Shown here: positions 2,655-32,912 of the stretch, one piece after another
Layout of the letters: each line of letters starts with the position of its first letter
Numbering within the stretch: the first letter of the stretch is position 1
DNA from: a virus
DNA: 64,000 nt
Virus record (IMG/VR): IMGVR_UViG_3300021057_000011
Location: 35,726-99,725 of that record
Strand: one strand, 5' to 3'
Notes under the pieces: model-generated
What the model saw: only the letters and a program-made list of their open reading frames with translations
Database searches by the model: none
Told to the model about the DNA's origin: nothing
Made by a program: the position numbers and the translations under genes

Positions 2655-2985
2655 GCTGCGCCTCCAGCATCTGTTTGAAATAGTCGTAATCGTGCCGCGT
2701 CAAGGCATACAGCTCCAGCCCGCTCCCAAAAGTAATGACAAGCACCGGGGTCTTGGAGACTTGGCTGGCTTCCTGAATGACCTTGGTGAACCAGGCCTCA
2801 TGCAGGGTGATGGATTTGCCGCCGCAGTCTTTATGCTCAAGCAGCACCAGATCGTCCTGCATGTCCCCCTTTTTTCGCAGCGCCCCGCTTTGCTTTGTCA
2901 GATGCATGTTGAGGCTTTTTGCGAGCTTTTTTTCCTGCGTCTGGCTTTCCTGCTTCGTCGTCCGTATACTCTGATACCGTTTCAT
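2647..2985 (-). CDS. Holliday junction resolvase (Hjc-like PD-(D/E)xK)
   Basis: QEKKLAK...SGALRKKGD...LLEHK motif; GAGGA 5 nt before the ATG at 2985. Confidence 0.75.
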   Translation of the reverse strand: MKRYQSIRTTKQESQTQEKKLAKSLNMHLTKQSGALRKKGDMQDDLVLLEHKDCGGKSITLHEAWFTKVIQEASQVSKTPVLVITFGSGLELYALTRHDYDYFKQMLEAQRG

Positions 2986-4159
2986 CCGGGTCCTCACTGG
3001 GGGGAAAATTATAGGTCACGCCGTCCTTGTAAACCATCTCGTCCATCTTGTCGTACAGGTACGTGAGGAACTTAGCATCCTGTCGCACCCGCTCCATGAG
3101 CTGTACATCGCCCTGTACCTTCAGACCGTCGATGGTGTACCAGGTCCCGGTCTTTTGGATCAGACCCAGATCCTTGCCCGCGGTGACAAGCGACTCTTCG
3201 CGATCAAAACCGAAACCCATGAAGGCATTGGGGGAAGGGTATTTCAACGCGGTGGTGTACAGGTCGGCATAGGTTGTCCGCCCTTCGTAGGGGCTGCGAA
3301 CCTTCTGCATCTCGTAAGCGATCCGCTTGCCGATGCGACCGCCCATGATAAAAGCCCCGGTCTGGTCATTGGGGTCATTGGGGTCGTACCAGCCCTTGTC
3401 AAACTGGTATGTGAGCTCCTTTTCCACCGACAAAATGATCGAGGTGTCCACAAAGAAATTCACCGACTTGGCGCTGGCAGGTTCCCGCCGGGTAAAGGTC
3501 ATGCCCCCAGGCCCTTTGTACATGCCCGTCCGCAGCTGGTTGATGAACACCACCGCGGTCCGGTTGGGCATCACTTTCTTTTTCACCGGGTCATAGTACG
3601 TCTGCAGGCTGACCATCAGCTGCCGGCAAAAACGCTCGAGCAAGGCCGCCCGCTCCGACATTTTGGCGGAGGCCGCCAGGGACTTCTCGGTTTCCTTTTC
3701 ACCGATCAAGCTGGCAATGTCGTCCACCACGATCAGGTCAACCAGATTGGCCTTGGCAAACGCAGCCGCCTGGTCCAAACCCAGCTCATGGGTTTCGGCA
3801 TTGATCAGGTGAATCCGGTTCAGATCAACTTTGTACTTCTTCATCAGCTCGACCTGGGCGGTCCATGCATTCTGAATATTCACCACCACGGCGAAAAAAT
3901 CGGCATTGATCGCATGGTTAAAGCCGATGGTCTGCATCACGGTACCGGTTTTTCCAGTGGCATACTCCCCCGAAATCATCGACGCCTGGCTTCGCAACAG
4001 ACCACCGTTGAGGTAGAGATCCAAGCTGGGAATCCCGGTCGGAATGTACCCGGGCTGGATCCCGATCAGCTCACTGCCGCGGACGACCGACCCGGGTTTC
4101 TTACTGTGAAAATTGGCAATCAAGGCATCAATTTCATTGGCTTTGGAACTCATGTCCAT
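2837..4159 (-). CDS. recA: RecA/UvsX-like recombinase
   Basis: IPTGIPSLDLYLNGG, Walker A GEYATGKT, Walker B LIVVDDIASL, FINQLR and C-terminal LIQKTGTWY. The catalytic Glu position is Gln. Confidence 0.93.
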   Translation of the reverse strand: MDMSSKANEIDALIANFHSKKPGSVVRGSELIGIQPGYIPTGIPSLDLYLNGGLLRSQASMISGEYATGKTGTVMQTIGFNHAINADFFAVVVNIQNAWTAQVELMKKYKVDLNRIHLINAETHELGLDQAAAFAKANLVDLIVVDDIASLIGEKETEKSLAASAKMSERAALLERFCRQLMVSLQTYYDPVKKKVMPNRTAVVFINQLRTGMYKGPGGMTFTRREPASAKSVNFFVDTSIILSVEKELTYQFDKGWYDPNDPNDQTGAFIMGGRIGKRIAYEMQKVRSPYEGRTTYADLYTTALKYPSPNAFMGFGFDREESLVTAGKDLGLIQKTGTWYTIDGLKVQGDVQLMERVRQDAKFLTYLYDKMDEMVYKDGVTYNFPPSEDPDETVSEYTDDEAGKPDAGKKARKKPQHASDKAKRGAAKKGGHAGRSGAA

Positions 4160-4170
4160 CCTTCTTTCTG

Positions 4171-6216
4171 TTAGTTCTTGTCGGCCCAGGAGCGGCCGAT
4201 GGTCGGAATGGCTTCGAGCGGAACCCGCAGTTTGTATGAAGATTCCAGGATCTGCTGCATCACGGGCGCGATGGTTTCAGCGTCGTGTTCCCAACACTCG
4301 ACGATCAGTTCGTCGTGCACCTGGAGGACAATCCCGGCACCCGGATGATGGGTCTCGAGATAGGCATCCAGACGGATCATGGCCAGTTTCATGATGTCGG
4401 CCTCTGAGCCCTGAATATGACAGGCAAACAGGGAGCGTTCCGCTGCCGCCCGGCGCCATTTCAGCTTGTCGTCGTGCCCTTTGTAGGTGGCATCAAGATC
4501 GGTGATATACCGGCCGGCCAGGGTCTGCGTCGTGCCGTGCTTGTTCATGGTCCGGTTATGTGCCGCAACATAGTTGGCGGCCACCGGATGCACCACGCGC
4601 CAGCCTTTGATGAAATACTCCGGCACGCCCAGCGTTTCCGCGCCTCCTTGAAATAATACGCCGAAGTTCACGTTTTTCATCGCTTTTCGCCATTTTTGAA
4701 ACTGACCCAGCGGAGCGATTTCACCCATCTGCTGCAGCTTCTCCGCGTGCTCTTTCTCGGCCTTAAGGCCAGCGAGAAAGTCGTCAATCGGAATGCGATG
4801 AATCTGGGCGGCCCCAATACTGTGCAGGTCCTTGCCGGTGTTGAAGGCATCGACCATCACCGGATCCTGGCTGAAATGGGCCATGATGCGCAGCTGCAAC
4901 TGACCATAGTCCGCCATCACGAAAACCTTTCCCGGAGCTGGCACAAAGGCCGCGCGGAAGCGAGGATCCCCAGGGATGTTCTGTAGATTCGGTTTGTCAC
5001 TGGACAAACGGCCTGAATCGGTGCCTACGTTGTTGTAGCTGGTATGAATCCGGGACTCGTGATCTACCAGGTAAGGCAACTTGCTGGTGAACATTTTGAT
5101 GAAGGTCGCCGCCCGAGAAAATTCCGCCAGATGTTTAGCGATCTCATGGCCTTGTTTGGCGAGCTGATCGAGCGTTTTCAGATTGGTGGCTTTCTTGCCC
5201 CCATCCGTGTAGTTATCCGTGTGCAGTTTCAATTTGTCGTAGAGGATGTAGCGGAGCTGATCGCCGGAGGTAATTTTGAAACTCTCGCCGGCGATCTCGA
5301 AAACCTTCTCCATCCGCTCGCGCTTAATGGCTTGGGAAATTGCTTCGAGCTCATGGATCATGTCAGGACGAAGGCGAATTCCCCGATGCTCCATCCTCGC
5401 CAGCACACTGATGTAGGGCAGCTCAATCCGTGTGTAATGCTCAAGCAGGTTCCGCTGCTTGAGCTTGGGGATAAAAGTCTGATACATCTTGGGCGGCAGC
5501 TGAACGTCCTGGACGGTGTACTCGACAAACTCCGGCGCCCAGATATCCGCCGGGCATTTTTTTCCGAAGCTCTTGAGAGAAATGGTGTCCTTTGTTAGCC
5601 GCTCGTGAACCGCCCGGGTCTTCAGACCCTTGGGGGCTTTCACATCCACCAGGTAACCTGCCACCTGGGTATCTTCAATGTTCGCCAGGTTGATCCCCAG
5701 CCGCCACATCGCCCGCTGGTCAAACCCGATGTTGTGTCCAAGGAAGGTCTTGGCTGGGTCCTCGAAGAAGGGCTTCAGATCCCGCGCTATGCACTCGCGC
5801 GGGATGTTGACATCAAAGAGTGTCCGGTGTCCGATCGAGACATAGAACCCGTGGGTGACACATGGTGCAATCGGCAGAATCGACAGACCCACGACCTTGG
5901 CCCAGGCCTCGAGCCCCTCGGTCTCTGTGTCAAAGCTGAAGAAGGTGTACATCGACAGCATCAGCAGCATGACGTGAAGCATCTCCTCGGTCTGCACGAG
6001 CACTTTGTCGATGAAATCGGGCTTGTTGTACTTCTGCTGGTACAGCGAGACACAGCCGGCACAGCGGATCTGGTTCTCTTCCGAGGCCGCTTCAAAGACG
6101 GATTTGGTCTGGCTCAGGTCATCTTTGGCCGCGCCACAAAGATTTCGGCGCTCAGAGGCCGAGTACAAATGGCGCGCGCGGATCGTGGTTAAGTAGCTGG
6201 GAGCCGTAACGGACAT
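4171..6216 (-). CDS. polA: Family A DNA polymerase with a 3'-5' exonuclease domain
   Basis: Exo motifs DTET, GHNIGFD and YTVQDV; polymerase motifs SGRLSSDKPNLQNIP, ADYGQLQLR, RKAMKNVNFG and QVHDEL. Start at MSVTAP after GAAAGGAG. Confidence 0.95.
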   Translation of the reverse strand: MSVTAPSYLTTIRARHLYSASERRNLCGAAKDDLSQTKSVFEAASEENQIRCAGCVSLYQQKYNKPDFIDKVLVQTEEMLHVMLLMLSMYTFFSFDTETEGLEAWAKVVGLSILPIAPCVTHGFYVSIGHRTLFDVNIPRECIARDLKPFFEDPAKTFLGHNIGFDQRAMWRLGINLANIEDTQVAGYLVDVKAPKGLKTRAVHERLTKDTISLKSFGKKCPADIWAPEFVEYTVQDVQLPPKMYQTFIPKLKQRNLLEHYTRIELPYISVLARMEHRGIRLRPDMIHELEAISQAIKRERMEKVFEIAGESFKITSGDQLRYILYDKLKLHTDNYTDGGKKATNLKTLDQLAKQGHEIAKHLAEFSRAATFIKMFTSKLPYLVDHESRIHTSYNNVGTDSGRLSSDKPNLQNIPGDPRFRAAFVPAPGKVFVMADYGQLQLRIMAHFSQDPVMVDAFNTGKDLHSIGAAQIHRIPIDDFLAGLKAEKEHAEKLQQMGEIAPLGQFQKWRKAMKNVNFGVLFQGGAETLGVPEYFIKGWRVVHPVAANYVAAHNRTMNKHGTTQTLAGRYITDLDATYKGHDDKLKWRRAAAERSLFACHIQGSEADIMKLAMIRLDAYLETHHPGAGIVLQVHDELIVECWEHDAETIAPVMQQILESSYKLRVPLEAIPTIGRSWADKN

Positions 6217-6293
6217 GGGACACTCCTTTCGATAACTGGGATCCGCTTGAGGGAAGCGGCATGTGAACCGGTCACCACCTCCGTGAAGCGGAC

Positions 6294-6320
6294 AAAAACC
6301 GGGGGCCCAGAGGCCCCCGG
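6294..6320 (-). terminator. Intrinsic terminator upstream of polA
   Basis: 9-bp stem CCGGGGGCC/GGCCCCCGG, 4-nt loop, then TTTTT on the minus strand. Confidence 0.7.
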
Positions 6321-6377
6321 GACGTATCTGTAGCAAACAGGTGAATCAGAATGGGCTAGTCGATAACCTCGGCCTCC

Positions 6378-8131: not shown

Positions 8132-8608
8132 TCACTCCGTAAAGGGATGGCTTTGGTACAGGGCACGGTTGGTTTCGAGGTAGGTGCGAATATCCTCCTT
8201 GAGCGTGGTCCAGGATTTGTCTTCGAGCTCGGCGTCCTCCAGCGCCGCTTCAATCGCATCGCAAATCAGGTGGTAGTCCGCATCGCCGTAGCCGTACTGG
8301 TAGCGGCGGAACTTGGTCGGAGCTGGAAGAATCCCCACCCGCTTGAGCTGCTCGACCTGCTCGAGGCTCAGGCCGGTGGTGGCGGAAATGGCAGCCAGGG
8401 TGAACACGTCGTAGGAGAGCGTCACCTTGTCCGCCGCGGCCTTGAGCTTGCGCGAAAAATAGGGGTAGCTGATCGGCACCTCGACCGGTTCGGTATGCTC
8501 GCCGGCGGTGGGGTGGACATGCCCGTTCTTGCGCGTGCCGATCGGTTTCCCCAGGGCGGTAGCGCGGGCTTTCTGCTTTTTCCAGGCATTCCTTAGCGGG
8601 ACTGACAT
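8132..8608 (-). CDS. MerR-like helix-turn-helix protein
   Basis: FTLAAISATTGLSLEQVEQLKRVGILPAP...YGYGDAD matches the MerR wHTH pattern; basic N-terminus. Confidence 0.6.
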   Translation of the reverse strand: MSVPLRNAWKKQKARATALGKPIGTRKNGHVHPTAGEHTEPVEVPISYPYFSRKLKAAADKVTLSYDVFTLAAISATTGLSLEQVEQLKRVGILPAPTKFRRYQYGYGDADYHLICDAIEAALEDAELEDKSWTTLKEDIRTYLETNRALYQSHPFTE

Positions 8609-9933
8609 CCGAGCCTCGCATAGACCTGTTTGCGCTTGGCGCCCATCTTGATCAGCATGATGTTGCCGGTGTCGGTCAGATCCACCACCAGCGGCGTTTT
8701 CTTGTTGGGCGCGACCCGAGACACGCGGCCGAGAACCTGCTCGACCAGGCCGTGCGAGGAAAAGGGTGAACCGAAAATCGCGGTGTCGAGCTCGGGCAAA
8801 TCCAGTCCCTGCTTCACAATTTGCAGCTGACCGAAAATCAGGGGCTTCTCATAGGCCTCCTCATACTCCCAGGGCTTCATCCCGCCGCGAAGAAACCCAT
8901 AATCCACGGGACCCCAGGCGGCTTCCACGAGCTCCACGAGACGCTCGACATGGGCATGGCGCTCGACAATCACCAGAATCTTTCGCCCGGCCAGCAGACA
9001 TTTCCGAATCACATCCGCCAGAACATCATTGCGACCCGCATCCAGAGCCATTTCGGTTTTGGTCTTGACCAGGTCCAACTCGCCGCCGCGTTTGGTTTTG
9101 AGATAGGCCGTGCTGCGGTGGGAGAGATGGACCACCTCCGGCACAAGAATAATGCCGGCATCGACAAGCTCCTGGTGGCTGATGCGGTAGCTGATCTCAC
9201 CCGTACCATAGACCATCACGGGCTCGAGGCCGTCATCGCGTGGCGTGGCGGTCAACCCCGTCCGGCGCGCAGCCGGCAAAGGCCACAGAGCCTTTTGCCA
9301 TTCCATCGCGGCGATGCCGTGGCACTCGTCGGTGATGACATGGCCGACATCCTGCAGCTCGGGATACTCCTCCGGGGGTTTACCAGACAGGGTCTGAACC
9401 ATTGCCAGGGTGATGTCCCGCACGTCCCGCTTTTTGCCCTTGATCAGGCCCGGATCGTAGTCCATGAACTTCTGCATCCGCCGGCGCCACTGGTCGAGCA
9501 GCTGCTCGGTCTGGGTCAGAATCAGGGTCTTGACCGGAATCCGCTCGATCAGACCCAACCCCATGGTGGTCTTGCCCGAGCCGCAGGGCGAGCAGAGAAT
9601 CTGGTCGCCGGGGTTCCAGACGACATGGTTGATGCCCGAAAGCTGGAAGGCATGAAAGGTGATGTCCAGTCGCGGGGGCGCAATGGGAGCTCCCACGACC
9701 GTCCGGTCCTCAAGCCGGGCATAGGGGAGCAGGGACCGGATCGGGTAGTTTCGGGGCAGCCAGTACTCGTCCCCCATGCGGTGGATGTAGCTGAGCGTGG
9801 GCGGCGCGGTTCGTTGATGCGCCGCGGCCTTGTTCTCGACTTCGAAATGCGAGAGCATGCTGTCGGGCAACAGCTCGCAAGGGATACGGAGCACAGAATC
9901 CCGAAGAATCGTGTTAGAAAGGGTTCCAAGCAC
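8593..9933 (-). CDS. Superfamily 2 DNA helicase (UvsW/XPB-like)
   Basis: SPCGSGKT, ITDECH, GLTATP, QGLDLPELD and QVLGRVSR; GTG start after GGAGG. Confidence 0.92.
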   Translation of the reverse strand: MLGTLSNTILRDSVLRIPCELLPDSMLSHFEVENKAAAHQRTAPPTLSYIHRMGDEYWLPRNYPIRSLLPYARLEDRTVVGAPIAPPRLDITFHAFQLSGINHVVWNPGDQILCSPCGSGKTTMGLGLIERIPVKTLILTQTEQLLDQWRRRMQKFMDYDPGLIKGKKRDVRDITLAMVQTLSGKPPEEYPELQDVGHVITDECHGIAAMEWQKALWPLPAARRTGLTATPRDDGLEPVMVYGTGEISYRISHQELVDAGIILVPEVVHLSHRSTAYLKTKRGGELDLVKTKTEMALDAGRNDVLADVIRKCLLAGRKILVIVERHAHVERLVELVEAAWGPVDYGFLRGGMKPWEYEEAYEKPLIFGQLQIVKQGLDLPELDTAIFGSPFSSHGLVEQVLGRVSRVAPNKKTPLVVDLTDTGNIMLIKMGAKRKQVYARLGCQSR

Positions 9934-10900
9934 AAAGAGCCTCCAGTTGATGCATGCGGACATCCGCGATGTTGATCGCCAAATCCAGTTGGGCCCGGAT
10001 CTGGTAGTAGGGAGTTTCCCCGAAGTCTTTTTTGCCCGCCGCCATCGGCACGAAAAAGAGACGCAGGTTTTCGCTCTCGAGCGTGCGCAAGGCCGGACCG
10101 AAGGTGCAGTCGTAATAGTCCCCAGCGGGTTTCAGTTGCAGGCTGGCCCGCTGTCCTGCCAGGTCGTTGTCGAAGGCCAGGTACAGGGTGGTCACGCCCA
10201 TCTCACGCAAATCTCGCAACTTCAGCGGCGTGATCGAGAGGCCCAGCGCAGCAGCTGCAGGAAAGCCTGCATAGTGCACTGCCAGATAATCAAACGGACC
10301 TTCCACCAGCACGAGCGTGTCGGTGGCGGTGTGGTGGGTGAAGAGATGGGCATCTCCAAAGGTGCGGCCTTTGCCGGTGAGGTATTTTTGGACATAGTTC
10401 TTGCCGCTCCAAAACATCAGGGATTCGGATTCCGCGTGGTAGCGACAATCCATTGGCAACCGGCCGACCTCTCCCAGTCGCCGCGTGAGATAGTCGACGG
10501 CCGCCGGGTATTTGGAAATCGGCTCGCAAGCATCGAACAGGCGCTCGCCCATTTCCAGGGTTTCCTGCTCGGGCACGAGAAACTCGTTGAAGGGAATGTA
10601 GGAGGTCTCCGTCACATGCACGGCGGTCTCGGCAAAGCCCGTGTCCCGGACGCCGAGCTTCTTCCAGAACTCCCTGCCCGAAAGCCCGTGCCGGGGACGC
10701 CCCGCACTGTCGTGACCGAAGACACAGCCCCCGAAGCAGTAGAACAGGTGCTTGTGCACCGAGTACCGGGCGGACAGCCGGCGGCCGGAGTTGGCATGAA
10801 ACGGACAGGGAAAGGCGTACTGGGGATTGCTGCTGCCCTGGCCCTCCAGCTTCACGTTTAAGATGCCGGCGGCCGTCAGACGACTCAGGATATCATTCAC
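9914..10900 (-). CDS. dnaG: DnaG-type primase (CHC2 Zn finger + TOPRIM)
   Basis: CPFH...FYCFGGC Zn finger; LVEGPFD and AFDND TOPRIM motifs. Confidence 0.9.
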   Translation of the reverse strand: MNDILSRLTAAGILNVKLEGQGSSNPQYAFPCPFHANSGRRLSARYSVHKHLFYCFGGCVFGHDSAGRPRHGLSGREFWKKLGVRDTGFAETAVHVTETSYIPFNEFLVPEQETLEMGERLFDACEPISKYPAAVDYLTRRLGEVGRLPMDCRYHAESESLMFWSGKNYVQKYLTGKGRTFGDAHLFTHHTATDTLVLVEGPFDYLAVHYAGFPAAAALGLSITPLKLRDLREMGVTTLYLAFDNDLAGQRASLQLKPAGDYYDCTFGPALRTLESENLRLFFVPMAAGKKDFGETPYYQIRAQLDLAINIADVRMHQLEALCAWNPF

Positions 10901-11236: not shown

Positions 11237-12571
11237 TCAGGACTGGTCCTCCCGCGACACGGCGAACAGGGGCATCCCATGCCCGTCGGTTTGCTCCATC
11301 CGTGCCTGCGTCTGCGACAGATCCGCCCGGTAGCCGAAGGCCATGCGCTCAAAGTCCCAGTCGCAGGTCCATTTCACCCGTCGCTGAAAGCCGTCGCGCA
11401 GCTTGATCGCCTCGATGCCCATAAAGGGCAGGTCCCCACCATCAGACACCAGACGCAAAACCACCGAAGCATCGTTGACATAGGTCGGGGAATTGGCCGC
11501 GGCGGTGGAGGAGCCCTTGGACCCTTCCTGGTTGGTGACGATGCCGGGGATGTTATTGAGCATCAGCGCGTCCTTGAACCCGCCGGTGAGCTCCCCTTGC
11601 TTCTCCCATTTGTAACCGCCGGCAAAGAGATAGCCCCCGTCGAGGCCGACGATGTCGGGCTTGATCGCCCGGATCTTGGCCTGCATCAGCTGGATGCCCC
11701 CGCTGTCGGAGCCCTGGTCGATATAGAAGGGAGACAGGTTGCCCGATGCCCGCTTGTGGGCCAGGTCCTGCAGGAAGGCGAAATACTCCGCTTCCTGGAT
11801 CGGATCGAGCTCGCTGCGGGCCAGGGCCCGGTACGGTAGGCCCGACATCAGAGCATCGAGGCGCAGACCCAGCTGCCGGATCGTCATTTCCTTGGTGAAG
11901 AGCAGGACCTTCTTCCCCATGCGGCTGGCGTGGACCAGGCACAGCAGCATCAGCCAGGTTTTTCCCAGGCCGGATTTGCCGAGAATCGTCACAAGATCGC
12001 CGCCCTGAAAACCGATGATCTGCTCGTTGAGCGGTTCCCAGGGTGTGGGGATGAAGGTCTTGCGGATGTACTCGGGATCCTTGCGCCGCTGGTAATCCTG
12101 GTCTCGGACCTGGATATTGGCCGTGACGTCATCCGTCTCGGACTTCGCCAGCGACAAGGCATACTGGCTGGTGAAGTCCATTACGAGCTTCTCGAGATCC
12201 GCGACCAGCATCTGCTGCTGCGGAATCGGAGCCGCCTTTGCCGCCTCATTTTTGTCGATGATTTCCTTGGCCAGCCCAAGAAGGGATTCCTTGCGCTTGC
12301 GATCCTTGACCCGGTCGCAGTAGAAGCGCAGGGTTTCTTTCGGCGCGGCATAGAAAAACCCGAAGCGGGCCTGAACGGTTTCCGGGTCCGGGACCTTACC
12401 GAACTGAACGTAGAAATTCTTGAGGAAGGTGAAAATATCGTCGTAGGGCTCCTTCAGCCAATTGGGCTCGATCTTTTCCTTAAGCGCGAGCGCGATATCG
12501 TTCTCGGCGATCAGGCTGCAGACGAAGCCCTTGTCGATATCAAGGGGTTGGACAGGCAGTTGCAGAGACAT
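11237..12571 (-). CDS. dnaB: DnaB-like (SF4) replicative helicase
   Basis: GKSGLGKT, FTKEMT, IVGLDG, NQE, DASVVL and IKLRDG. True start is MSLQL (TGATG overlap). Confidence 0.9.
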   Translation of the reverse strand: MSLQLPVQPLDIDKGFVCSLIAENDIALALKEKIEPNWLKEPYDDIFTFLKNFYVQFGKVPDPETVQARFGFFYAAPKETLRFYCDRVKDRKRKESLLGLAKEIIDKNEAAKAAPIPQQQMLVADLEKLVMDFTSQYALSLAKSETDDVTANIQVRDQDYQRRKDPEYIRKTFIPTPWEPLNEQIIGFQGGDLVTILGKSGLGKTWLMLLCLVHASRMGKKVLLFTKEMTIRQLGLRLDALMSGLPYRALARSELDPIQEAEYFAFLQDLAHKRASGNLSPFYIDQGSDSGGIQLMQAKIRAIKPDIVGLDGGYLFAGGYKWEKQGELTGGFKDALMLNNIPGIVTNQEGSKGSSTAAANSPTYVNDASVVLRLVSDGGDLPFMGIEAIKLRDGFQRRVKWTCDWDFERMAFGYRADLSQTQARMEQTDGHGMPLFAVSREDQS

Positions 12572-13005
12572 CAGTGCAGTAACTCCTCGAAAAGTGCTAG
12601 GGCCCGGGCCCATTTCGGGCTGGGCTTTTTGATTTTGGCCTTGACCTTGGTCACCAGCCGGCCGGCCCGGTGGGCGGCGGCCCAAACCGGATCGGCGGTA
12701 AAAAACACCACGCACTCGACCCGGCCGAGGTGGTAGCGCTCGCACACGAGAACCGTCGGTGCGATGTCCTCGAACAGCGTGGCGAGCTCGTAGGAGGTCA
12801 CCACGACAGTGTTCTGGTCGTAGAGCTTCGCCGCGTGCTCGAGGTTGTTGAGAGTGATCGGGTTCCAGCGGAAGGCATAGGGAGCGAGCCGGGGACATCT
12901 CCGCAGCAGCCAGCGCAGCAGCTTGGGGGTGTCCGTGTCGATGAAGAGACGGTAGTCCCAGGCCGCAGTGTGGCCGAAGTCGTTGGAGATGTCCCCGTGC
13001 TGCAT
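12571..13005 (-). CDS. Hypothetical protein (MQHGDISN...), coupled to the helicase
   Basis: TGATG overlaps at both ends. Confidence 0.75.
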   Translation of the reverse strand: MQHGDISNDFGHTAAWDYRLFIDTDTPKLLRWLLRRCPRLAPYAFRWNPITLNNLEHAAKLYDQNTVVVTSYELATLFEDIAPTVLVCERYHLGRVECVVFFTADPVWAAAHRAGRLVTKVKAKIKKPSPKWARALALFEELLH

Positions 13006-14345
13006 CAGGCGATGGCCGTCGCGCGGGTACGCTTGCCCTTCTTGTCCTGGCCCAGCAACCAACCGGCGACGTTTTCCTCGACATCGACCCGGAACTTGGG
13101 ATTGAGGTTCTGGGCGAGCTCGGTGACGTCGTAGACCAGGTCGTAGGCCCCGATCCGCTTTTCGTCCTCGAGCCCCTGCGGCACCCGCTTTTCGTAGATC
13201 GGCTCTTCGATGCTGCGGGCGAGGTCCTTGGGAATCCGGCCCAGGAACTGGTTGAGCACGGCCTGGGCTTCGTTCTTGTTGTAGAGCACCTCTTCGGTGA
13301 TCAGGGCGTGCATCCGGTCGATGATTTCGCCGCTGCCACCGTTGGCGAACCAACGGATGGCTTTGGCGATCAGGATGTGAATAGCGTCCTCGGGCACGTT
13401 GATGTTCTTCTGGTTGAAGAGCTCGACCGCGCCGATCAGATCGACCACCCCGTTGAGACACTGCACGCACGTCCAGCTCGGTGAGAACTTGGACTTGCAG
13501 TAGTCGTTCTCGGAGTTCTGGAAAAAGATGCCCGGCCGGTAGACATGCCGGTTGGGCAGAATTTTTTCCTCGGCGCCGCCGAGAATCAGACGGAAGCTCA
13601 TCATGTCGGCGGTGAGGTGGGCCTTGAGAACCTCATAACTACCGCCGCGCTCGGCCAGCTCCGACTTGAGGGCCTTGAGCAGCTGCAGCTGGGTCATCTG
13701 CTTTTTGTTGTGGGTCGTGATGCCCCGGACGATGTTTTCCCCGCCGACAGAAATCGTGCGCAGCGTCAGCGTCGGATTTTCCTTGAGCTTGTTCTCAAGG
13801 ATGTACTGGCGCATGAAGGCCTTCTGCTCGCTGTACCAGCCGGCGGGAATGTTGCCGGCGGACGTCAGCAGCTTGCTCTGCCCGAAGCTCGACAGCTTGT
13901 AGCCTTCGCCCCTGCAGATCAGCAGATCCACCGGCTGGCCATCGATGTCCCGGCTTTCGACCCGGACATCGTCGACATCGAAGGTCCGCTCGCGGGTATT
14001 GGCGTTGAGCTCCTCGGCCACGAGGATCATGTCGTCGAGGGTGGGATTCTGCCGCCCGTTGCCGTAGTAGGTCTGCAGCAGGTTGTTGCCGGTGAGAATA
14101 TCCACGGGCTTCAGGCCCGGTCGTACACTGGATGCCGGGGCCGGCACAGTATCGAGGAAGGCCGCGGACACCGGATCGAGAGCCGGGGCATCGAACGTGT
14201 CCGCCTCGATGACGACGTCGCCGCCCTCGAAGCTGCCGGCATCGAAATCGGCCGGGGCCTCGGTCGGTTCGGCGTAGCCCGTCTCGGGTGCGTCCAGGGT
14301 CGCGGTGGTATCGGTGAAGTGATCGGGATTGAAGGTAAAGGTCAT
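13005..14345 (-). CDS. DUF932-like protein with an acidic N-terminal arm
   Basis: GIFFQNSEND...CVQCLNG resembles DUF932/LGT-family phage proteins. Confidence 0.55.
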   Translation of the reverse strand: MTFTFNPDHFTDTTATLDAPETGYAEPTEAPADFDAGSFEGGDVVIEADTFDAPALDPVSAAFLDTVPAPASSVRPGLKPVDILTGNNLLQTYYGNGRQNPTLDDMILVAEELNANTRERTFDVDDVRVESRDIDGQPVDLLICRGEGYKLSSFGQSKLLTSAGNIPAGWYSEQKAFMRQYILENKLKENPTLTLRTISVGGENIVRGITTHNKKQMTQLQLLKALKSELAERGGSYEVLKAHLTADMMSFRLILGGAEEKILPNRHVYRPGIFFQNSENDYCKSKFSPSWTCVQCLNGVVDLIGAVELFNQKNINVPEDAIHILIAKAIRWFANGGSGEIIDRMHALITEEVLYNKNEAQAVLNQFLGRIPKDLARSIEEPIYEKRVPQGLEDEKRIGAYDLVYDVTELAQNLNPKFRVDVEENVAGWLLGQDKKGKRTRATAIA

Positions 14346-14400: not shown

Positions 14401-15054
14401 CTAGCGACTGTGACCACCTCCCATCAGTTTTTTCATCACGGCTTCTTTGGCCCGCGGCCGGTAATCGACCTCGGGCAGTTCCACCGTCACGTTCAACGCA
14501 AGGATCTCGTCCAGAAGAGAAGCGCCCAGCGCACTCTCGAGCTCGGCGTGGGTGGCGGAGGTGACGAAGAAGGTGATTTTTCCGTTTTGACGCCGGCGCT
14601 TGAGCACATAGGCGACCAGCTCCGAAAGCGGCCGGGCCTTGGCTCGTGAGGCATCGAGCAGCCGGGGAAAATCGTCCAGGATCAGGACCGAGCAGGTCAG
14701 CAGATGCTGCACCCGTTCTGTCTGTGCCTCGGAGCTGTACTGAAAAACGGTTTCCGCCACGGCATCGAGATCGACGCATTCCGGCTGCAGCGCGTAGGTC
14801 GCGCACAGATGCTTGGCGATGATCGACACCAGGGTGGTTTTCCCCGATCCCGGGATGCCCGTGATGGTCAGGCCCGTCTGCGTTGGGATCATGTCGGTGA
14901 AATTCTGGACGTAGGCCCGCGCGACACGCTGGGTCAGTTTATCCTCCAAGCTCTCGAAATCGAACTTCAACAGATCGAGCCGAAAGCCGTGCTGAGTCAG
15001 GGCGTTGTACACCCACGGGGGCGTTGGGTCGGTCATGGTTTCCTCCGTAGTCAT
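14401..15054 (-). CDS. DnaC/IstB-like AAA+ helicase loader
   Basis: GIPGSGKTT, VLILDD and RRQNGKITFFVT; directly downstream of the initiator. Confidence 0.88.
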   Translation of the reverse strand: MTTEETMTDPTPPWVYNALTQHGFRLDLLKFDFESLEDKLTQRVARAYVQNFTDMIPTQTGLTITGIPGSGKTTLVSIIAKHLCATYALQPECVDLDAVAETVFQYSSEAQTERVQHLLTCSVLILDDFPRLLDASRAKARPLSELVAYVLKRRRQNGKITFFVTSATHAELESALGASLLDEILALNVTVELPEVDYRPRAKEAVMKKLMGGGHSR

Positions 15055-17499: not shown

Positions 17500-18150
17500 C
17501 TATGCTTTACGATTTGCGGCAGCCTCCGGTGACACAAATGTGTATCCTTCGAGCTCCTGGTCTGTGTCGAGGTATGTTTTAGCCAGTATCCTATGGCTCG
17601 TAAATCCCAAATATTTTTTGGCAGCTTTAAATGTGTGGAAGGCGCCTACGAGTTCAGAACCTTTATACACAACAACTGGCTTGAAATTTTTTGAATAGTT
17701 TCCGTACCATGTGGTTACCCGAATGTTATCTAGACTATATCCTTTGGAATCATCTAGGCGATCTAGGCTAGGTTTGAAATTTCTGTTTTTATCTCCATCT
17801 AGCCAAGTCGTGTAGATCTTCAGATATACCGGATCGTTCAGGTACCGGTCTATTAGTTCTGCCAAGGTATATGTTGGTGGAGGATGTCCCCTTCTTTTAC
17901 TATTTATTACTTGAGCGCTGAACAACATATGCAAGATTCCTTTCGGAGTCTCCTCCCACTTTTCACCATAGCCCAGCTCCTTAACCGTGTTACCAAGGGG
18001 AAGTTCGTTGGTGCACGTCGGGGGGTATTTGACTGAGGGGTCCTCGCCGTACCTTGCTACTTGCCTCAGCCAAGCATTTCTTCGTCGTGTCTCATTTCGT
18101 TTGATTTGTGCTGCTATGACTAGTTGATCGCGACCCTTATCATCCGACAT
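17500..18150 (-). CDS. His-Me finger (HNH-like) free-standing endonuclease with a NUMOD-like C-terminus
   Basis: PSLDRLDDSKGYSLDNIRVTTWYGN motif; C-terminal KPVVVY...FHTFKAAKKYLG; markedly AT-richer than its flanks. Confidence 0.75.
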   Translation of the reverse strand: MSDDKGRDQLVIAAQIKRNETRRRNAWLRQVARYGEDPSVKYPPTCTNELPLGNTVKELGYGEKWEETPKGILHMLFSAQVINSKRRGHPPPTYTLAELIDRYLNDPVYLKIYTTWLDGDKNRNFKPSLDRLDDSKGYSLDNIRVTTWYGNYSKNFKPVVVYKGSELVGAFHTFKAAKKYLGFTSHRILAKTYLDTDQELEGYTFVSPEAAANRKA

Positions 18151-18225
18151 AAGTTTCACCTTTCTGGTTTTAGCTATTCTTCGTCAAGATCCATTACTTT
18201 AAGGGGGTCGGATGGTTTGCATGGG

Positions 18226-18435
18226 TTAACTCTCTCCTTCGGTAGTCATGAGTTGTCGGTACATCTGCCAGCGTTTTTCAACGTCGGCCAAGTAGCGGTT
18301 GAGCTGGTCGAAGCTGTGGGGTTTGGTTTCATCGCCTTGATCCAGCAGCTCGTCCAAAAAGGCGGCAGCAGAGGACAGGGCATAGTAGAGCTGCTCCGCG
18401 ATCGGGTAGACGGAAACGGCGTTAGGTTTCATCAC
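18226..18435 (-). CDS. Small early hypothetical protein
   Basis: AAGGAG SD; overlap-coupled. Confidence 0.65.
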   Translation of the reverse strand: MMKPNAVSVYPIAEQLYYALSSAAAFLDELLDQGDETKPHSFDQLNRYLADVEKRWQMYRQLMTTEGES

Positions 18436-18778
18436 AGTGGGGCTCCTTATTCAAGATCATGTGGATGTAGCGGAGCTCCTCTTCGAAATCAAGGGTGAGG
18501 AGTTTAGTGAGGCCGTGCTGTGCCGCCTCCAGGGTGGGGTACGTTTCGAAATCACCCAGCTCATACCGCCCATCTGGTTCGGCGTTGTAGAGCCGGGCCT
18601 GGACGTTGTAGTACCAGCCAGGATCAAACACCGGGTCGGTTTCTTTCATCAGGGTGCAGATGTCGAACACCCTGCCGGGTTTAGTTGGGTGTGGAATATG
18701 GGCCCGCCATTCCGTCCCTGGTGAGGACTCAGTCCAGATAAGTCCCATGTAGCGACGCGGAGAATCAACCTGTGACAT
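18422..18778 (-). CDS. Early hypothetical protein
   Basis: Start MSQVD after GGGAG. Confidence 0.65.
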   Translation of the reverse strand: MSQVDSPRRYMGLIWTESSPGTEWRAHIPHPTKPGRVFDICTLMKETDPVFDPGWYYNVQARLYNAEPDGRYELGDFETYPTLEAAQHGLTKLLTLDFEEELRYIHMILNKEPHCDET

Positions 18779-19358
18779 GGAAGATCTCCCACTGCTTGGC
18801 TTCCTGCCGCTCTTTTTTAACTGCTTCAACGACCTCGGCCAGCTCTTCTTTCAGCCGCTCCTCGGCATACTCCTGCCCGACATAGCCCCAGCAGGAATCC
18901 CGGTCCTCGCCATCGACTTCGATCACCCAGCCCCAGCAGTTGCCATTGCACCAGTCGCTGTACTCCTGCAGGCAGTGGGTGATTTGCTTTTGCAGCCGCT
19001 CCTCGGGGGTGACGGTATCCCAGGGGTCTTGCTTGTAGGCCGCGTGGTCCTCGATCAGATTGGGGCCGAGGATGAAGTAGCCGGCGAAGGAAACGTCCCA
19101 TTCCCGGTCCGGGTAATCGCCCTGATCGCGCAGTCCGTAATGCACCAGCCCGTGCTCGTAGCGTTCGATCGGGAAGGCCAACGGATCATCCTGGTACTGC
19201 TCCAAAAGGCTGTGGTTGTAGTTCATCCGGCCGCGCTCGAAGAGCTTCAGCTCTCCGTCGTCACCCAAGGGGCAGGAGCAATCTGGGTCCTGCTCGAGCC
19301 AGCCTCGGATGGCAACCCCTTCGACAATGATCGTTTGTTCGCATTCACGGTGTACCAT
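18765..19358 (-). CDS. Acidic early protein with W-C-N-G...DSCWGY motif
   Basis: About 43 D/E in 197 aa; the motif pattern resembles a recurrent phage early-protein family of unknown function. Confidence 0.7.
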   Translation of the reverse strand: MVHRECEQTIIVEGVAIRGWLEQDPDCSCPLGDDGELKLFERGRMNYNHSLLEQYQDDPLAFPIERYEHGLVHYGLRDQGDYPDREWDVSFAGYFILGPNLIEDHAAYKQDPWDTVTPEERLQKQITHCLQEYSDWCNGNCWGWVIEVDGEDRDSCWGYVGQEYAEERLKEELAEVVEAVKKERQEAKQWEIFHVTG

Positions 19359-19848
19359 CTTCCCAAATCAGTCCTTTCGCAAAGTAATAGCCGTCCCGGA
19401 TCGGCGGGCCGTGGAAATCCGTCTGAATGTTCGGAGCCCGGTCCCCGCTGTAGGTTTTTGTCTTGCTCTCCGGGTGCTTGGCGAAGAGACAGTAGTAATA
19501 GACCTCATAGCCGGAGGCCCGGTTGACATAGCCCGTGACGCGGAACCCGGTCCAGACCAGCTCATTGGAGGCTTTGAGCAGATCCTTCAGGTAGGCCAAA
19601 ATGGCGAGTGGGTCCGCGTCCCGTAGCCAGTTCAGGTAGTTTTTGGCCTTAGGTAGATGCCTATCCCCGGCGGCCTTGCGCTGCTCATAGGGGAGCCGGT
19701 CGCCGTAAGCGTTCCAGAATTTGTCCCGTTCCTCATAGATGTCGGGGAACTCGAACTGGCGGATCAGCATGTTGTTCGCCGGCCGCGGGTTAGAGTAATG
19801 CATCGCCCCAAACCGATACGGTTCAGCATGGCTAACTCGACGTTCCAT
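19345..19848 (-). CDS. Early hypothetical protein (WTGFRV...NRASGY...LFAK)
   Basis: AAGGAGGT SD before MERRV. Confidence 0.7.
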   Translation of the reverse strand: MERRVSHAEPYRFGAMHYSNPRPANNMLIRQFEFPDIYEERDKFWNAYGDRLPYEQRKAAGDRHLPKAKNYLNWLRDADPLAILAYLKDLLKASNELVWTGFRVTGYVNRASGYEVYYYCLFAKHPESKTKTYSGDRAPNIQTDFHGPPIRDGYYFAKGLIWEDGTP

Positions 19849-30008: not shown

Positions 30009-32912
30009 TCACACCTTGAGACCCAGGGTTGGAAACAAAGGCCGGACAAAGATCTTGGCCAGTGTGCCGCCGCCGTATTTGGTGCCCGCGCCGGCATTTT
30101 TGACGTTCTGGGTGTTCATGTTTGTGCCGGCGGGAAACACCTGGGTGGGTTTGGACAGCCCGTACGAGGAGGCCCCGGTGCCAAAGACCTTGTTGATTAC
30201 GGTGCTGTTGGCGTCCCACCAGTCGCGGAAGCCATGCCAAGACGGGCCGTAGACGCTGTCGGAATCAATCGCTCCGGTGCCCATTTCGATCGTGATGTTG
30301 CCGGTTTCGTAGGGGTAGAGCTGGGCCGGGTCTTCCGGGCAGGCCGCCGGCAGGATGCGCATCTCCGTGCCCACGGTCGTGCCCGGGTCGATCACGGTTT
30401 CCGCCCCGTCGATCACCGGCGGCAGCCAGATTTCCACCGGGATCTTGTAGCAGACGATGCTCGAGGAAAAGTCCCGCGCGCCATAGAGGGGGGTGCCGTC
30501 GTAAACCTGGTCCTCGAGCACGGGCCGCAGCTCGTTCTCGAGGAAGTCCTGCTCCTCGGGCGGCAGGGTCGGGTAGAGGGATTCATAGCCGTGCGGGCTG
30601 TACGGGGTGCTTTCCCACCAGTAGTCGAAGGTGTACTGGTCCGGGTCGGGGCCGGTATTGATCGCCGTGCAGCGGGCATTGAGGTGCCAGTACCCCGGCG
30701 GCAGGGCAAACAGCGAGCTCCACAGGCTGAAGGTTTGCACGTACGGTACGCGGGTGACCCCCGTCAGTGTGCTCAGCGGCCCGTACTCCGTGAACGAGGT
30801 CGTGATCAGGTCGTTGTCCAGCCAGGGGGCCTGGGCGGTCACCTCGTTGGCGTAGCTCAGCTCCCAGACCGGGGGATCGTATTCGTGCGCGGTCGGCCGC
30901 GGAATTTCCAGCACCGGTCCGCTGCCGATCTTGACCCAAAACTTCGTGGGCACATTGAAGGCCCCCACGTACAGGCTCTCCCAGCTTTGGTAGGGCAATT
31001 CGCCATCGGGCAGCAGCTGGGCGGGTGTTGGCGAGAGGAAATTGGTGGTGCTGTAGCAGCGCCAGTAGTGCACGTAAAAGGTCAAATGGTGGCAGTAGGG
31101 TTCGAGCTCGGCAAAGGTATCGGGGGTCTCTGCCGGCGCCCGGTTGAGGACATAGGAGGCCTTGGGGCAGAGCTCGTCGGTCTGAAAGTTCCAGCCGTTG
31201 TCGACCTCGTTGGAATAGCCCAGGGTCACGTGCGGCCGCAAATCGTTGGTGATCAGCTCCAGATCATCGGTGTGAGTTTCGAGCACCGAGCTCAGCAGCA
31301 CCGATTTGGCCACGGGCTTTTGGGCCGCCTCGAAGCGCTGGGTGTATTTGAGTTCTTCGACCGCGCGGCCGAAGGGTCCAAAGCGATGGCCCGTGGAATT
31401 TTCCGGAAACTGGATGTGATCGATCACCCCCAATTCGCGAATGCGATGGTCCCCGCTCGAGGTCAGCGGGGGGCCGAAGGAGGTGAACAGATCGCCGGCA
31501 TCGAGTGCGGCATTGTCCGCGCTCAGGGCAAAAGGGAACAGGGCAAACAGCGTCGAACCGTCCTGAGATTCCTGAATGGTTTTCAGGGCCTGGCCCTGAT
31601 AAAAGTGCCGGTCAAACACGGCTTTGGGCCGGTTGTAGGCCGGCAGGTACCAGGCGCTGGTGACGACCTCTGATCCGTTGAGGGTTTCGTTGCTGAGCTG
31701 GAAGTACTGGCTATGCGCCAGCTTGACCCGGATCCAGCGGGTGTCGGTGGTCACCGCATTGGCGTAGCGGTAGCAAAAGGGTCCGTTCTCCAGCGAGACG
31801 AAGTAGCCGGGGTTGGAGACCAGGTAGCTGATCGCGCCGCCGAGCGGCACGCGCTCGCTGAGTCGGTTCATGTCGATCACGAATTCCTGCACCATGCAGT
31901 GCGCGGCGATGAAGTCCGCATCGATGGTTTCGCCGGCCTCGATCGTACTCAGCGGGGCCAGGGAGAGCCAGTCGGTGTAAATCTGGTTCATGATCCGGAT
32001 CCCGTGGACCGGCAGATGGTCGCTGGAGAGCTCGTCGGTCGTGGCGCCGGGGGTCTGGTTGAGCACCGGGTGGCCTTTGACCATCGTGATCGAGTAGGCC
32101 GGGTCGGTGTCGATCTGCTGCTTGGGGGTCAACCCGGAAATCACCTTGCCGATGTCGGTGTTGTAGACATTGAAGGGCGTGTCGAGGGTGTCATCGGCCG
32201 GATTGAGCGAGCCCCACATCTGCTGGCCGACGGCGGTGGCCCCGAGGGAATCCTGGGTGGTGAAGCTGAACGGCCCGTACAGGGCATACGGACCTGGTGG
32301 CAGGATGCTGAGGCGGTTGACTTTCTGTTTGATCGCGGTGCTGAATTCCGGGTAGACATCGAAGGTCACCACGGTGATCGGCGGCGGACTGGCGTTGAGG
32401 TCGAACTGGTTGCTGTCGCAGCTGTAATCGGCGTAGAGATCGCCATAGTCGAAGTCGGAGGCAAACGGGCGGGTGTCGCTGGCGAGAAAGGGCGTGCTCG
32501 CATTCAGCCAGCCGGAATCGAAGCCCACCGGCCAGCACTTCGGGCCGCCATAGAGAAAGACCTCGCTCACGCGGTTCTGGCCCCGGTTGCTGCTGCTGAG
32601 CATAGAGCCGGAGTAAAAATGGGCGTAGACGGTGCAAAAGGAGAGCACATGGATCGGATGCCCAGTCGGGTAGCTGGGAAAGATGCGCGGCGGGGGGTCT
32701 CCCACATCCGAGACCCGGACCTGGCGGCCCGTGGCGCGGTGCACGACCGATCGCCGGGGCTCAAGCGGAGTTACCCGACCGTTCTCGACCCAGACCTGTT
32801 CGCCGGCGCGAATACCGGCAAAGCCCGGGACTCGGATCAGGGTCCGGCCCTGGACGGCCAGATCGACCGTTCGATCGGGGTGAACGTAGCGAACCAGACC
32901 GCGTAGTTTCAT
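30009..32912 (-). CDS. Large tail-tip/baseplate protein (967 aa)
   Basis: ATGA overlap at MKLRG; aromatic/Pro/beta-rich; located in the tail-tip cluster. Confidence 0.65.
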   Translation of the reverse strand: MKLRGLVRYVHPDRTVDLAVQGRTLIRVPGFAGIRAGEQVWVENGRVTPLEPRRSVVHRATGRQVRVSDVGDPPPRIFPSYPTGHPIHVLSFCTVYAHFYSGSMLSSSNRGQNRVSEVFLYGGPKCWPVGFDSGWLNASTPFLASDTRPFASDFDYGDLYADYSCDSNQFDLNASPPPITVVTFDVYPEFSTAIKQKVNRLSILPPGPYALYGPFSFTTQDSLGATAVGQQMWGSLNPADDTLDTPFNVYNTDIGKVISGLTPKQQIDTDPAYSITMVKGHPVLNQTPGATTDELSSDHLPVHGIRIMNQIYTDWLSLAPLSTIEAGETIDADFIAAHCMVQEFVIDMNRLSERVPLGGAISYLVSNPGYFVSLENGPFCYRYANAVTTDTRWIRVKLAHSQYFQLSNETLNGSEVVTSAWYLPAYNRPKAVFDRHFYQGQALKTIQESQDGSTLFALFPFALSADNAALDAGDLFTSFGPPLTSSGDHRIRELGVIDHIQFPENSTGHRFGPFGRAVEELKYTQRFEAAQKPVAKSVLLSSVLETHTDDLELITNDLRPHVTLGYSNEVDNGWNFQTDELCPKASYVLNRAPAETPDTFAELEPYCHHLTFYVHYWRCYSTTNFLSPTPAQLLPDGELPYQSWESLYVGAFNVPTKFWVKIGSGPVLEIPRPTAHEYDPPVWELSYANEVTAQAPWLDNDLITTSFTEYGPLSTLTGVTRVPYVQTFSLWSSLFALPPGYWHLNARCTAINTGPDPDQYTFDYWWESTPYSPHGYESLYPTLPPEEQDFLENELRPVLEDQVYDGTPLYGARDFSSSIVCYKIPVEIWLPPVIDGAETVIDPGTTVGTEMRILPAACPEDPAQLYPYETGNITIEMGTGAIDSDSVYGPSWHGFRDWWDANSTVINKVFGTGASSYGLSKPTQVFPAGTNMNTQNVKNAGAGTKYGGGTLAKIFVRPLFPTLGLKV

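Follow-up and report, generated by a model that had tools for sequence, protein, structure and literature searches.

In DNA polymerases of family A, the residues equivalent to Glu710, Tyr766 and Asn845 of the Klenow fragment are highly conserved, yet they are not catalytic. Glu710 and Tyr766 have been treated as fixed within the family, and they are the residues that engineers alter in order to change sugar or analogue selectivity. Here we analyze a natural family A polymerase (PolA) in which all three residues have been replaced. The enzyme is encoded in a 64,000-nucleotide stretch of viral DNA (positions 35,726 to 99,725 of the IMG/VR virus record IMGVR_UViG_3300021057_000011), hereafter the window, to which all positions refer unless another record is named. 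An earlier note, made from the sequence of this stretch, had drawn attention to a rewritten nucleotide-selection pocket. Comparison of aligned sequences across family A indicates that the replacement of Glu710 by Gln is coupled almost perfectly to the appearance of a Glu at position 852 and, in phage-type enzymes, also to the replacement of Tyr766 by Phe.

The closest described systems provide a frame for this observation. Single-molecule work on the Klenow fragment has shown that E710Q weakens the binding of the correct deoxyribonucleotide (dNTP) about 280-fold overall and disfavours closing of the fingers (K2 0.52, against 6.1 in the wild type), and that Y766F behaves almost like the wild type, with a preference for the closed state (K2 9.6; PMC3715850). 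Since Y766F favours closing while E710Q disfavours it (PMC3715850), Phe766 could compensate for Gln710. In the Bst enzyme, Q797, R615, E658 and D830 (the equivalents of Q849, R668, E710 and D882) lie near one another (review, PMC10520511). We think it probable that the PolA described here is a working replicase whose pocket has been rewired and not degraded, with the carboxylate moved to helix Q and the Tyr-to-Phe change acting in compensation. According to this explanation, the Glu that sits under the incoming sugar, hydrogen-bonded to Tyr766, would have been replaced by an equally bulky, uncharged Gln, and the retained bulk would still block a 2'-OH. The Glu gained one helical turn past Gln849, at position 852, would keep the carboxylate on a different structural element, Tyr766 would have become Phe once deprived of its Glu partner, and the Ala at position 845 would be a conservative step from a clade-wide Ser. 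From the geometry of the helix, R841, N845 and Q849 should share one face of helix Q at four-residue spacing and residue 852 should continue this face toward the new base pair, where it may reach the space vacated at 710. Activity and dNTP selectivity would then be largely preserved, and any phenotype would presumably consist of a shift in insertion kinetics or fidelity, backed by an intact exonuclease.

The polymerase and its variant pocket

The polA gene (4171-6336, minus strand) is an open reading frame (ORF) of 2,166 nt, identified by Pfam and by alignment with Klenow, which encodes 721 amino acids (aa) if translation begins with the TTG at 6336, and 681 aa (P0002) if it begins with the ATG at 6216. 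A precomputed list assigns to P0002 the Pfam domains PF01612 (3'-5' exonuclease) and PF00476 (polymerase). The latter matches PolA with 261.6 bits, against a curated cut-off of 34.3, and is the sole PF00476 match in the record. Klenow aligns to PolA over nearly its whole length (E = 5.5e-74, about 30% identity), and the AlphaFold2 (AF2) model, built with 70 homologues, is confident and Klenow-like (predicted local distance difference test, pLDDT, 90; predicted template modelling score, pTM, 0.88), with residues 1-64 of the ATG form predicted to be disordered. The best structural matches returned by Foldseek for this model are Klenow (8oo6_A; template modelling score, TM, 0.79/0.88) and the Bst large fragment, and the top matches overall reach TM values of 0.73-0.79 by query and 0.85-0.88 by target, which supports a Klenow-like fold. 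The 5' nuclease domains PF02739 and PF01367 are missing from the Pfam list of P0002, though bacterial matches carry both, and PolA is therefore not a full-length bacterial DNA polymerase I (Pol I).

The residues involved in catalysis and dNTP binding are preserved in this enzyme. R403, D436, R510, K514, D635 and E636 (equivalent to R668, D705, R754, K758, D882 and E883) occupy invariant columns, F518, Q602 and H634 (F762, Q849 and H881) are likewise kept, and motif C (QVHDE; 4309-4323, minus strand) has intact equivalents of H881, D882 and E883, with Q632, H634, D635 and E636 all falling in invariant columns. The 3'-5' proofreading exonuclease domain (PF01612; 5452-6009, minus strand) retains the Exo I (FDTETEG), Exo II (GHNIGFDQ) and Exo III (YTVQD) motifs. 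All of their key residues (D96 and E98 in Exo I, N162 and D166 in Exo II, Y233 and D237 in Exo III) are present: D96, E98, Y233 and D237 occupy columns without variation, N162 varies very little, and D166 is identical in the four sequences of a separate alignment. The alignment thus bears out the earlier statement that D705, D882, R668, R754, K758, F762, Q849 and the exonuclease motifs are intact. With the DxE, Nx2-3(F/Y)D and Yx3D signatures all in place, PolA has the motif set of a proofreading-proficient polymerase, and proofreading activity is predicted for it.

The codons of the pocket were read directly from the DNA and their positions were set by alignment to Klenow and 13 relatives, a procedure that confirmed each codon of the Gln, Phe and Ala combination (Q/F/A) reported in the earlier note at the equivalents of E710, Y766 and N845. 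In motif A (DYGQLQLR; 4888-4911, minus strand; gac tat ggt cag ttg CAG ctg cgc), where the catalytic Asp is kept (D436, equivalent to D705), the steric-gate Glu710 is replaced by Gln441 (codon CAG at 4894-4896). Motif B, on helix O (RKAMKNVNFGVLFQG; 4645-4689, minus strand), keeps the equivalents of R754, K758 and F762 and has Phe522 at the place of Tyr766 (codon TTT at 4651-4653; NFGVLFQGG, aac ttc ggc gta tta TTT caa gga). Motif 6, on helix Q (RSLFACHIQGSEAD; 4396-4437, minus strand), keeps Gln602 (Q849; codon 4411-4413), and Asn845 has given way to Ala598 (codon GCC at 4423-4425; ERSLFACHIQG, gaa cgc tcc ctg ttt GCC tgt cat att cag ggc). A fourth change, A852E, emerged from a column-by-column comparison of lineages with Gln710 and Phe766 (Q/F) and lineages with Glu710 and Tyr766 (E/Y), in which 852 was the third perfectly discriminating position. 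The residue, Glu605 (codon GAG at 4402-4404; IQGS-E-ADI), lies three residues past Q849 on helix Q, just outside the span covered before (4411-5120), and was absent from the list of changes given there.

Chance or sequencing error is an unlikely source of this pocket, because a different base substitution underlies each of the four altered codons and unrelated sequences show the same combination. Judged by its sequence and modelled fold, PolA belongs to family A and departs from the norm in its pocket. It lacks the canonical E710/Y766/N845 set, yet this does not exclude it from the family, since its catalytic residues and its fold are those of the family.

The fingers also carry an insertion of about 25 residues between the equivalents of H734 and R754 (4705-4788, minus strand; alignment and AF2). 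This interval spans 45 residues in PolA and 20 in Pol I, and the 25 extra residues are modelled by AF2 as a confident helix (residues 477-496) and a loop immediately before helix O. Both the insertion and the unusual thumb segment had been noticed before and both are genuine, but they do not set this gene apart: the insertion ranges from 0 to 27 extra residues among members of the clade to which PolA belongs, and the thumb motif "K..STY" is kept nowhere in that clade. As judged from the alignment, the fingers insertion and the non-canonical thumb are variable clade-wide features.

Recurrence of the Gln gate and its coupling to Glu852

No relative of PolA above 46% identity was found among 5.8 billion clusters, 1.84 billion representatives, IMG/VR and cultured phages. 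The nearest proteins (P0122-P0127 and P0003, 38-46% identical) make up a clade of metagenomic phage PolA sequences, with contigs L225-L227 and L238, and all of them have Glu710, Tyr766, Ser845 and Ala852 (F-S-A-H-IQGS-A-(A/S)-D). By alignment, then, Gln710 and Phe766 are private to the present lineage and the loss of Asn845 is clade-wide. N845A accordingly falls outside the coupled set, the whole clade having Ser at this position already. Ser-to-Ala is, moreover, among the commonest private changes of this genome (17/623), and A845 needs no special explanation, given a clade that already had Ser845 and the frequency of this change in a genome rich in guanine plus cytosine (GC). The GC content of the record is 59.7%, against 29-48% in its relatives (compared with L001 and L225-L227), and the private amino-acid changes of the genome are mostly K-to-R, I-to-V and S-to-A, the pattern to be expected from a move into a GC-rich host. 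The closest relative, P0122 (953 aa, 46% identical), is interrupted within motif B, on helix O, by an insert of several hundred residues, about the size of an intein.

Private changes in a lineage without close relatives might reflect decay or relaxed constraint in a polymerase that is no longer important, or else an artefact of assembly. Several further observations would be in line with this: the RecA-like gene next to polA has, again as a private change, Gln in place of its catalytic Glu, the presence of a serine recombinase points to a temperate phage, and PolA has six private changes at otherwise invariant columns (several of them conservative), compared with 0-4 in other sequences. On the other hand, the ORF is intact (681-721 aa) and has every catalytic residue, the 44 family-wide invariant columns are intact, PolA is the sole polymerase found and lies inside a complete replication module, and its four different substitutions match a combination seen in many unrelated enzymes. 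Decay or artefact is, in our assessment, highly improbable. Relatives with Glu and Tyr had been named in advance as a sign of single-lineage decay; such relatives are indeed what we find, and we nonetheless judge that interpretation to be wrong, because the Gln gate and Glu852 recur across family A. Two other candidate explanations, prompted by the Glu-to-Gln change of the RecA-like gene, were rejected: a genome-wide bias from Glu to Gln (6/623, against 3/334 and 2/341) and codon reassignment, since CAG also encodes the conserved Q708 and Q849.

The recurrence of the Gln gate was established by searching IMG/VR, the metagenomes of JGI and the genomes of GTDB for a degenerate DNA pattern (D-Y-x-Q-h-Q-L-R-x-x-A-H) that constrains motif A only, spurious short ORFs being removed. 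Dozens of intact Gln-gate polymerases of family A came out of these scans. Scan matches, sampled viral Glu-gate enzymes, the clade of PolA and bacterial Pol I were combined into a set of 167 aligned polymerase cores, in which the states at positions 710/766 are E/Y (100), Q/Y (31), Q/F (28), E/F (6) and D/Y (2). Gln-gate sequences are spread over about 14 separate clades of the tree. Some eight of these are phage-type (motif A at residue 315-497, no 5' nuclease) and all have Phe766; five correspond to full-length bacterial Pol I of metagenome-assembled genomes (labelled Saccharibacteria, Patescibacteria and other groups) and keep Tyr766; and a single mixed clade of 23 sequences, mostly Pol I of Rickettsiales-like and other Alphaproteobacteria, has Tyr766 in nearly all members and Phe in at least one. 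Phe766 is present in all phage-type Gln-gate sequences of the core set (28/28, as opposed to 0/31 bacterial ones), in the 7/7 genuine viral matches of the scan restricted to motif A and in an eighth viral sequence, L235, recovered with a second pattern. Among viral Glu-gate controls, it occurs in 8/91, from two lineages.

The Q/F enzymes have little else in common. The GC content of their loci varies between 39% and 66%, as it does in the controls, and shows no link to the Q/F state. PolA alone is a consistent gene when this genome is compared with 27 Q/F loci, the RecA-like gene by the polymerase of L090 being the sole other replication-gene match. This 4.2-kb contig, from a Saccharibacteria metagenome-assembled genome, encodes a PolA 31% identical to ours, with Gln710, Phe766 and Glu852 (Q/F/E), followed directly by a canonical RecA-like gene, the same pair as here, and could be a piece of phage DNA that was assigned to a bacterial genome during binning. 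No cultured relative above 25% identity was found for two other Q/F polymerases (L011 and L004). Seven bacterial Pol I representatives (P0065, P0076, P0079, P0083, P0130, P0159 and P0214) have Asp at the steric gate (DYSQIDLR) and keep Tyr766. In the literature searched we found no description of natural Gln-gate family A enzymes or of residue 852, nor any report of the testing of A852E, and the 2023 reclassification of family A mentions Phe at B4 for DpoZ only.

The coupling of Gln710 to Glu852 is evident in the same 167 cores. Glu852 is found in 57/59 Gln-gate sequences (28/28 Q/F and 29/31 Q/Y), as opposed to 1/106 Glu-gate sequences, where the residue is Ala in 77, Gly in 23, Ser in 3 and Cys, Asn and Glu in one each. 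L235 conforms to the rule, its helix Q reading IQRA-E-VD. After removal of sequences more than 70% identical, the table of Gln710 against Glu852 stands at 32/2 versus 1/86 (Fisher p = 1e-25). Paired contrasts on the supported branches of an IQ-TREE phylogeny, computed with the four trait columns left out, gave 5.6 independent contrasts in the same direction, 0 in the opposite direction and 1.4 without difference (median p = 0.031). The sole Glu-gate sequence with Glu852, the bacterial-type representative P0233, also has Phe766 and may be an intermediate toward the Q/F/E state. The earlier suggestion that the pocket changes co-evolved hence fits E710Q with A852E and Y766F, and has to be given up for N845A, the clade being Ser there beforehand. 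A clade sharing Q/F/A, another point raised at the time, is not the clade of PolA itself, which is E/Y/S; Q/F does recur with Glu852 in unrelated phage enzymes, and one unrelated sequence (L031, 27% identical) is Q/F/A as well.

A relocated carboxylate has to be weighed against several results that speak for a different outcome. Klenow E710Q on its own is a slow mutator (PMC3715850) and N845A lowers fidelity (PMC10520511), so that a residual loss of fidelity in PolA is possible. The coupling of Gln710 with Phe766 taken alone, in the same paired-contrast test, which is underpowered for it, yields p of about 0.1-0.4, and the corresponding lineage-level Fisher test depends on the threshold used (p = 7e-6 to 1e-9 with clustering at 40-50%, not significant at 35%). 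The behaviour of the Klenow mutants, together with the intact exonuclease motifs and with the frequency of residues other than Asn at 845 (11/28 Q/F sequences, 0/31 Q/Y), could be accommodated by a lower-fidelity, mutator-leaning replicase in which the swap compensates only in part, the new base pair is checked more loosely, which the phage tolerates or even profits from, and proofreading is relied upon. The near-perfect retention of Glu852 argues instead for a carboxylate function under selection, and the loss of Asn845 in the clade is older than the Q/F change, for which reasons we regard a mutator-leaning enzyme as unlikely.

More generally, the Gln710/Glu852 arrangement, with Phe766 in phages, might be a repeatedly evolved alternative architecture that changes nucleotide selection (fidelity, fingers-closing kinetics or tolerance of sugar and base analogues) and has been favoured by selection in some phage replicases as well as in Pol I of bacteria that are represented solely by metagenome-assembled genomes (Rickettsiales-like Alphaproteobacteria, Saccharibacteria and other Patescibacteria); we put this forward tentatively, as an extension that is possible and rather doubtful. 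The natural and repeated replacement of the Glu710/Tyr766 pair offers, in any case, a test of whether it is the charge or the bulk of the Glu that matters, and polymerase engineering could draw on Gln-gate enzymes as natural scaffolds whose pocket is different.

Sugar selectivity and DNA modification

Glu710 is the classic steric gate, the Klenow variant E710A shows increased use of ribonucleotides (rNTPs; PMC3715850), and the position equivalent to Tyr766 has been described as aiding the discrimination between dNTPs and rNTPs. The loss of this Glu could thus be taken to mean that sugar selectivity is relaxed and ribonucleotides are tolerated. Gln, however, has the bulk of Glu, and the closing of Klenow on rUTP is no easier in E710Q (K2 0.056) than in the wild type (0.083), as opposed to E710A (0.16; PMC3715850). 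The same swap is also fixed in the full-length Pol I of many bacterial genomes, where incorporation of rNTPs would be costly. Relaxed sugar selectivity is very unlikely on these grounds.

Alternatively, the pocket might be adapted to non-canonical DNA, incorporating or copying modified bases such as 7-deazaguanine derivatives or 2-aminoadenine. A DpdA-like gene of 517 aa lies 7.3 kb from polA and about 3 kb before the start of the window (G000 31046-32599, equal to L106:11046-12599, minus strand). Its product matches phrog_887 (E = 2e-26) and has homologues annotated as dpdA-like in the Streptomyces phages BRock and GiJojo (tblastn); NCBIfam, Pfam and PDB sequence searches returned no match, and the name rests on PHROGs, tblastn and gene context. 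On the 93.7-kb contig L238 the homologue, 48% identical, adjoins QueC, QueD (PTPS) and two radical-SAM genes, and members of the clade are therefore likely to have a 7-deazaguanine derivative in their DNA. This gene is, however, common to the relatives L226, L227 and L238, whose PolA is E/Y, and it is missing in seven other Q/F viral records. The 7-deazaguanine-type genes of the clade thus co-occur with ordinary E/Y polymerases, and the pocket change is separated from DNA modification. DpdA enzymes, moreover, exchange bases in DNA that has already been replicated, and 7-deaza modifications are located in the major groove, at a distance from the pocket residues, which also counts against an adaptation of this kind. 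Pfam TGT, thymidylate-synthase-family, QueC, QueD and FolE genes were looked for in the record and not found; lacking QueC, QueD and FolE, the phage would need preQ0 from its host, or else the DpdA-like gene has another role.

The case for 2-aminoadenine draws on DpoZ, the polymerase of phages with Z-containing genomes. Both DpoZ clades have Y766F (PMC8599892, PMC10201439), and in the DpoZ of phiVC8 position 845 is also taken by a small residue, Gly548. Nevertheless, no candidate for PurZ (PF00709) was detected in the 101-kb record (estimated 80% complete) or in the seven other Q/F records, those who described DpoZ judged the Tyr-to-Phe change unlikely to decide the choice between A and Z, and phiVC8 DpoZ keeps Glu710 and is 23% identical to this PolA, below the identity of Klenow. 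An identification of the viral E/F group as DpoZ was also considered and rejected, the best solved-structure matches of that group being ordinary Pol I, and so was a ThyX-like gene as a correlate of Q/F, as it is present in L226 and not conserved in L227.

These results consequently do not support a connection of the Q/F/E pocket with DNA modification, and adaptation to modified bases is decidedly improbable. Altered sugar or base selectivity, the function proposed in the earlier note, finds no backing here: the carboxylate appears to have been moved and not lost, Gln is of the same size as Glu, the rUTP data for E710Q point the other way and the DpdA-like gene is uncorrelated with the pocket. 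The scan for modification genes that the note had recommended returned the DpdA-like gene only, with the distribution just described and without PurZ.

Genome context and comparison with known systems

The replicon that hosts PolA is an uncultured phage of some 100-110 kb with a serine-recombinase (integrase-like) gene. The record measures 101,449 bp, of an estimated completeness of 80%, and an identical PolA protein is also found on a contig of 111.5 kb. The recombinase is of the large serine type (Resolvase, Recombinase and zinc ribbon; G000 18006-19637, equal to L105:18006-19637, minus strand), which suggests a temperate phage. The window also encodes an AAA+ ATPase (14401-15054), a DnaB-like helicase (11237-13084), a DnaG-type primase (9914-10900), an SF2 helicase (8593-9963), a UvsX/RecA-like recombinase (2837-4159, minus strand) and a Cas4-like nuclease (995-1849). 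Searches of the record revealed neither a further family A polymerase nor a PolB or Pol III alpha. In the seven other Q/F viral records, two of which are complete genomes with terminal repeats, the Q/F PolA is likewise the sole family A polymerase, and no PolB or Pol III alpha was detected beside it.

The RecA-like gene has Gln at the position of the catalytic Glu96 (codon 3872-3874; VVVNIQNAW), so that the module contains two active sites with a private replacement of Glu by Gln, and its counterparts in L226, L227 and L238 keep the Glu (VVINLEG, SVINIEG and AVLNLEG). The junction between PolA and the RecA-like gene appears to be a variable insertion slot: the two genes abut here, an unrelated gene of 281 aa separates them in L227, and L226 has a ThyX-type thymidylate synthase in between (L226:4802-5728, plus strand; phrog_85, E = 7e-59; Pfam Thy1, 31 bits). 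An endonuclease VII/HNH-like ORF (17500-18159, minus strand) has a GC content of 0.44 at third codon positions, against 0.7-0.9 in its neighbours, and looks like a homing-type nuclease recently acquired inside the replication module.

Among known systems, the nearest to PolA are the members of its own clade (P0122-P0127 and P0003), which share Ser or Ala at 845, the variable insertion before helix O and the variable thumb segment. The clade contigs also share with this genome the order AAA+ ATPase, DnaB-like helicase, primase, SF2 helicase, PolA, RecA-like, Cas4-like nuclease, SpoVS-like and DpdA-like. They differ in having Glu710, Tyr766 and Ala852, in keeping the catalytic Glu of the RecA-like protein and in a GC content of 29-48% compared to 60%. 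DpoZ, in both its phiVC8-like and Wayne-like forms, resembles PolA in being a phage family A replicase with Phe766 (B4; F522 here), the only substitution common to both DpoZ clades (PMC8599892, PMC10201439). Unlike DpoZ, the present enzyme comes from a record without PurZ or a Z-cluster, and its nearest relatives form a clade different from that of phiVC8. With Klenow, PolA has in common the two-domain architecture, the fold, the catalytic Asp/Asp/Glu, R668, R754, K758, F762, Q849, H881 and the three exonuclease motifs, and it departs from it in Gln710, Phe766, Ala845, Glu852, the 25-residue helical insertion before helix O and a divergent thumb. The engineered Klenow variants E710Q, Y766F and N845A carry the same single substitutions at the same positions and have been studied one at a time, whereas the natural enzyme combines all of them with A852E.

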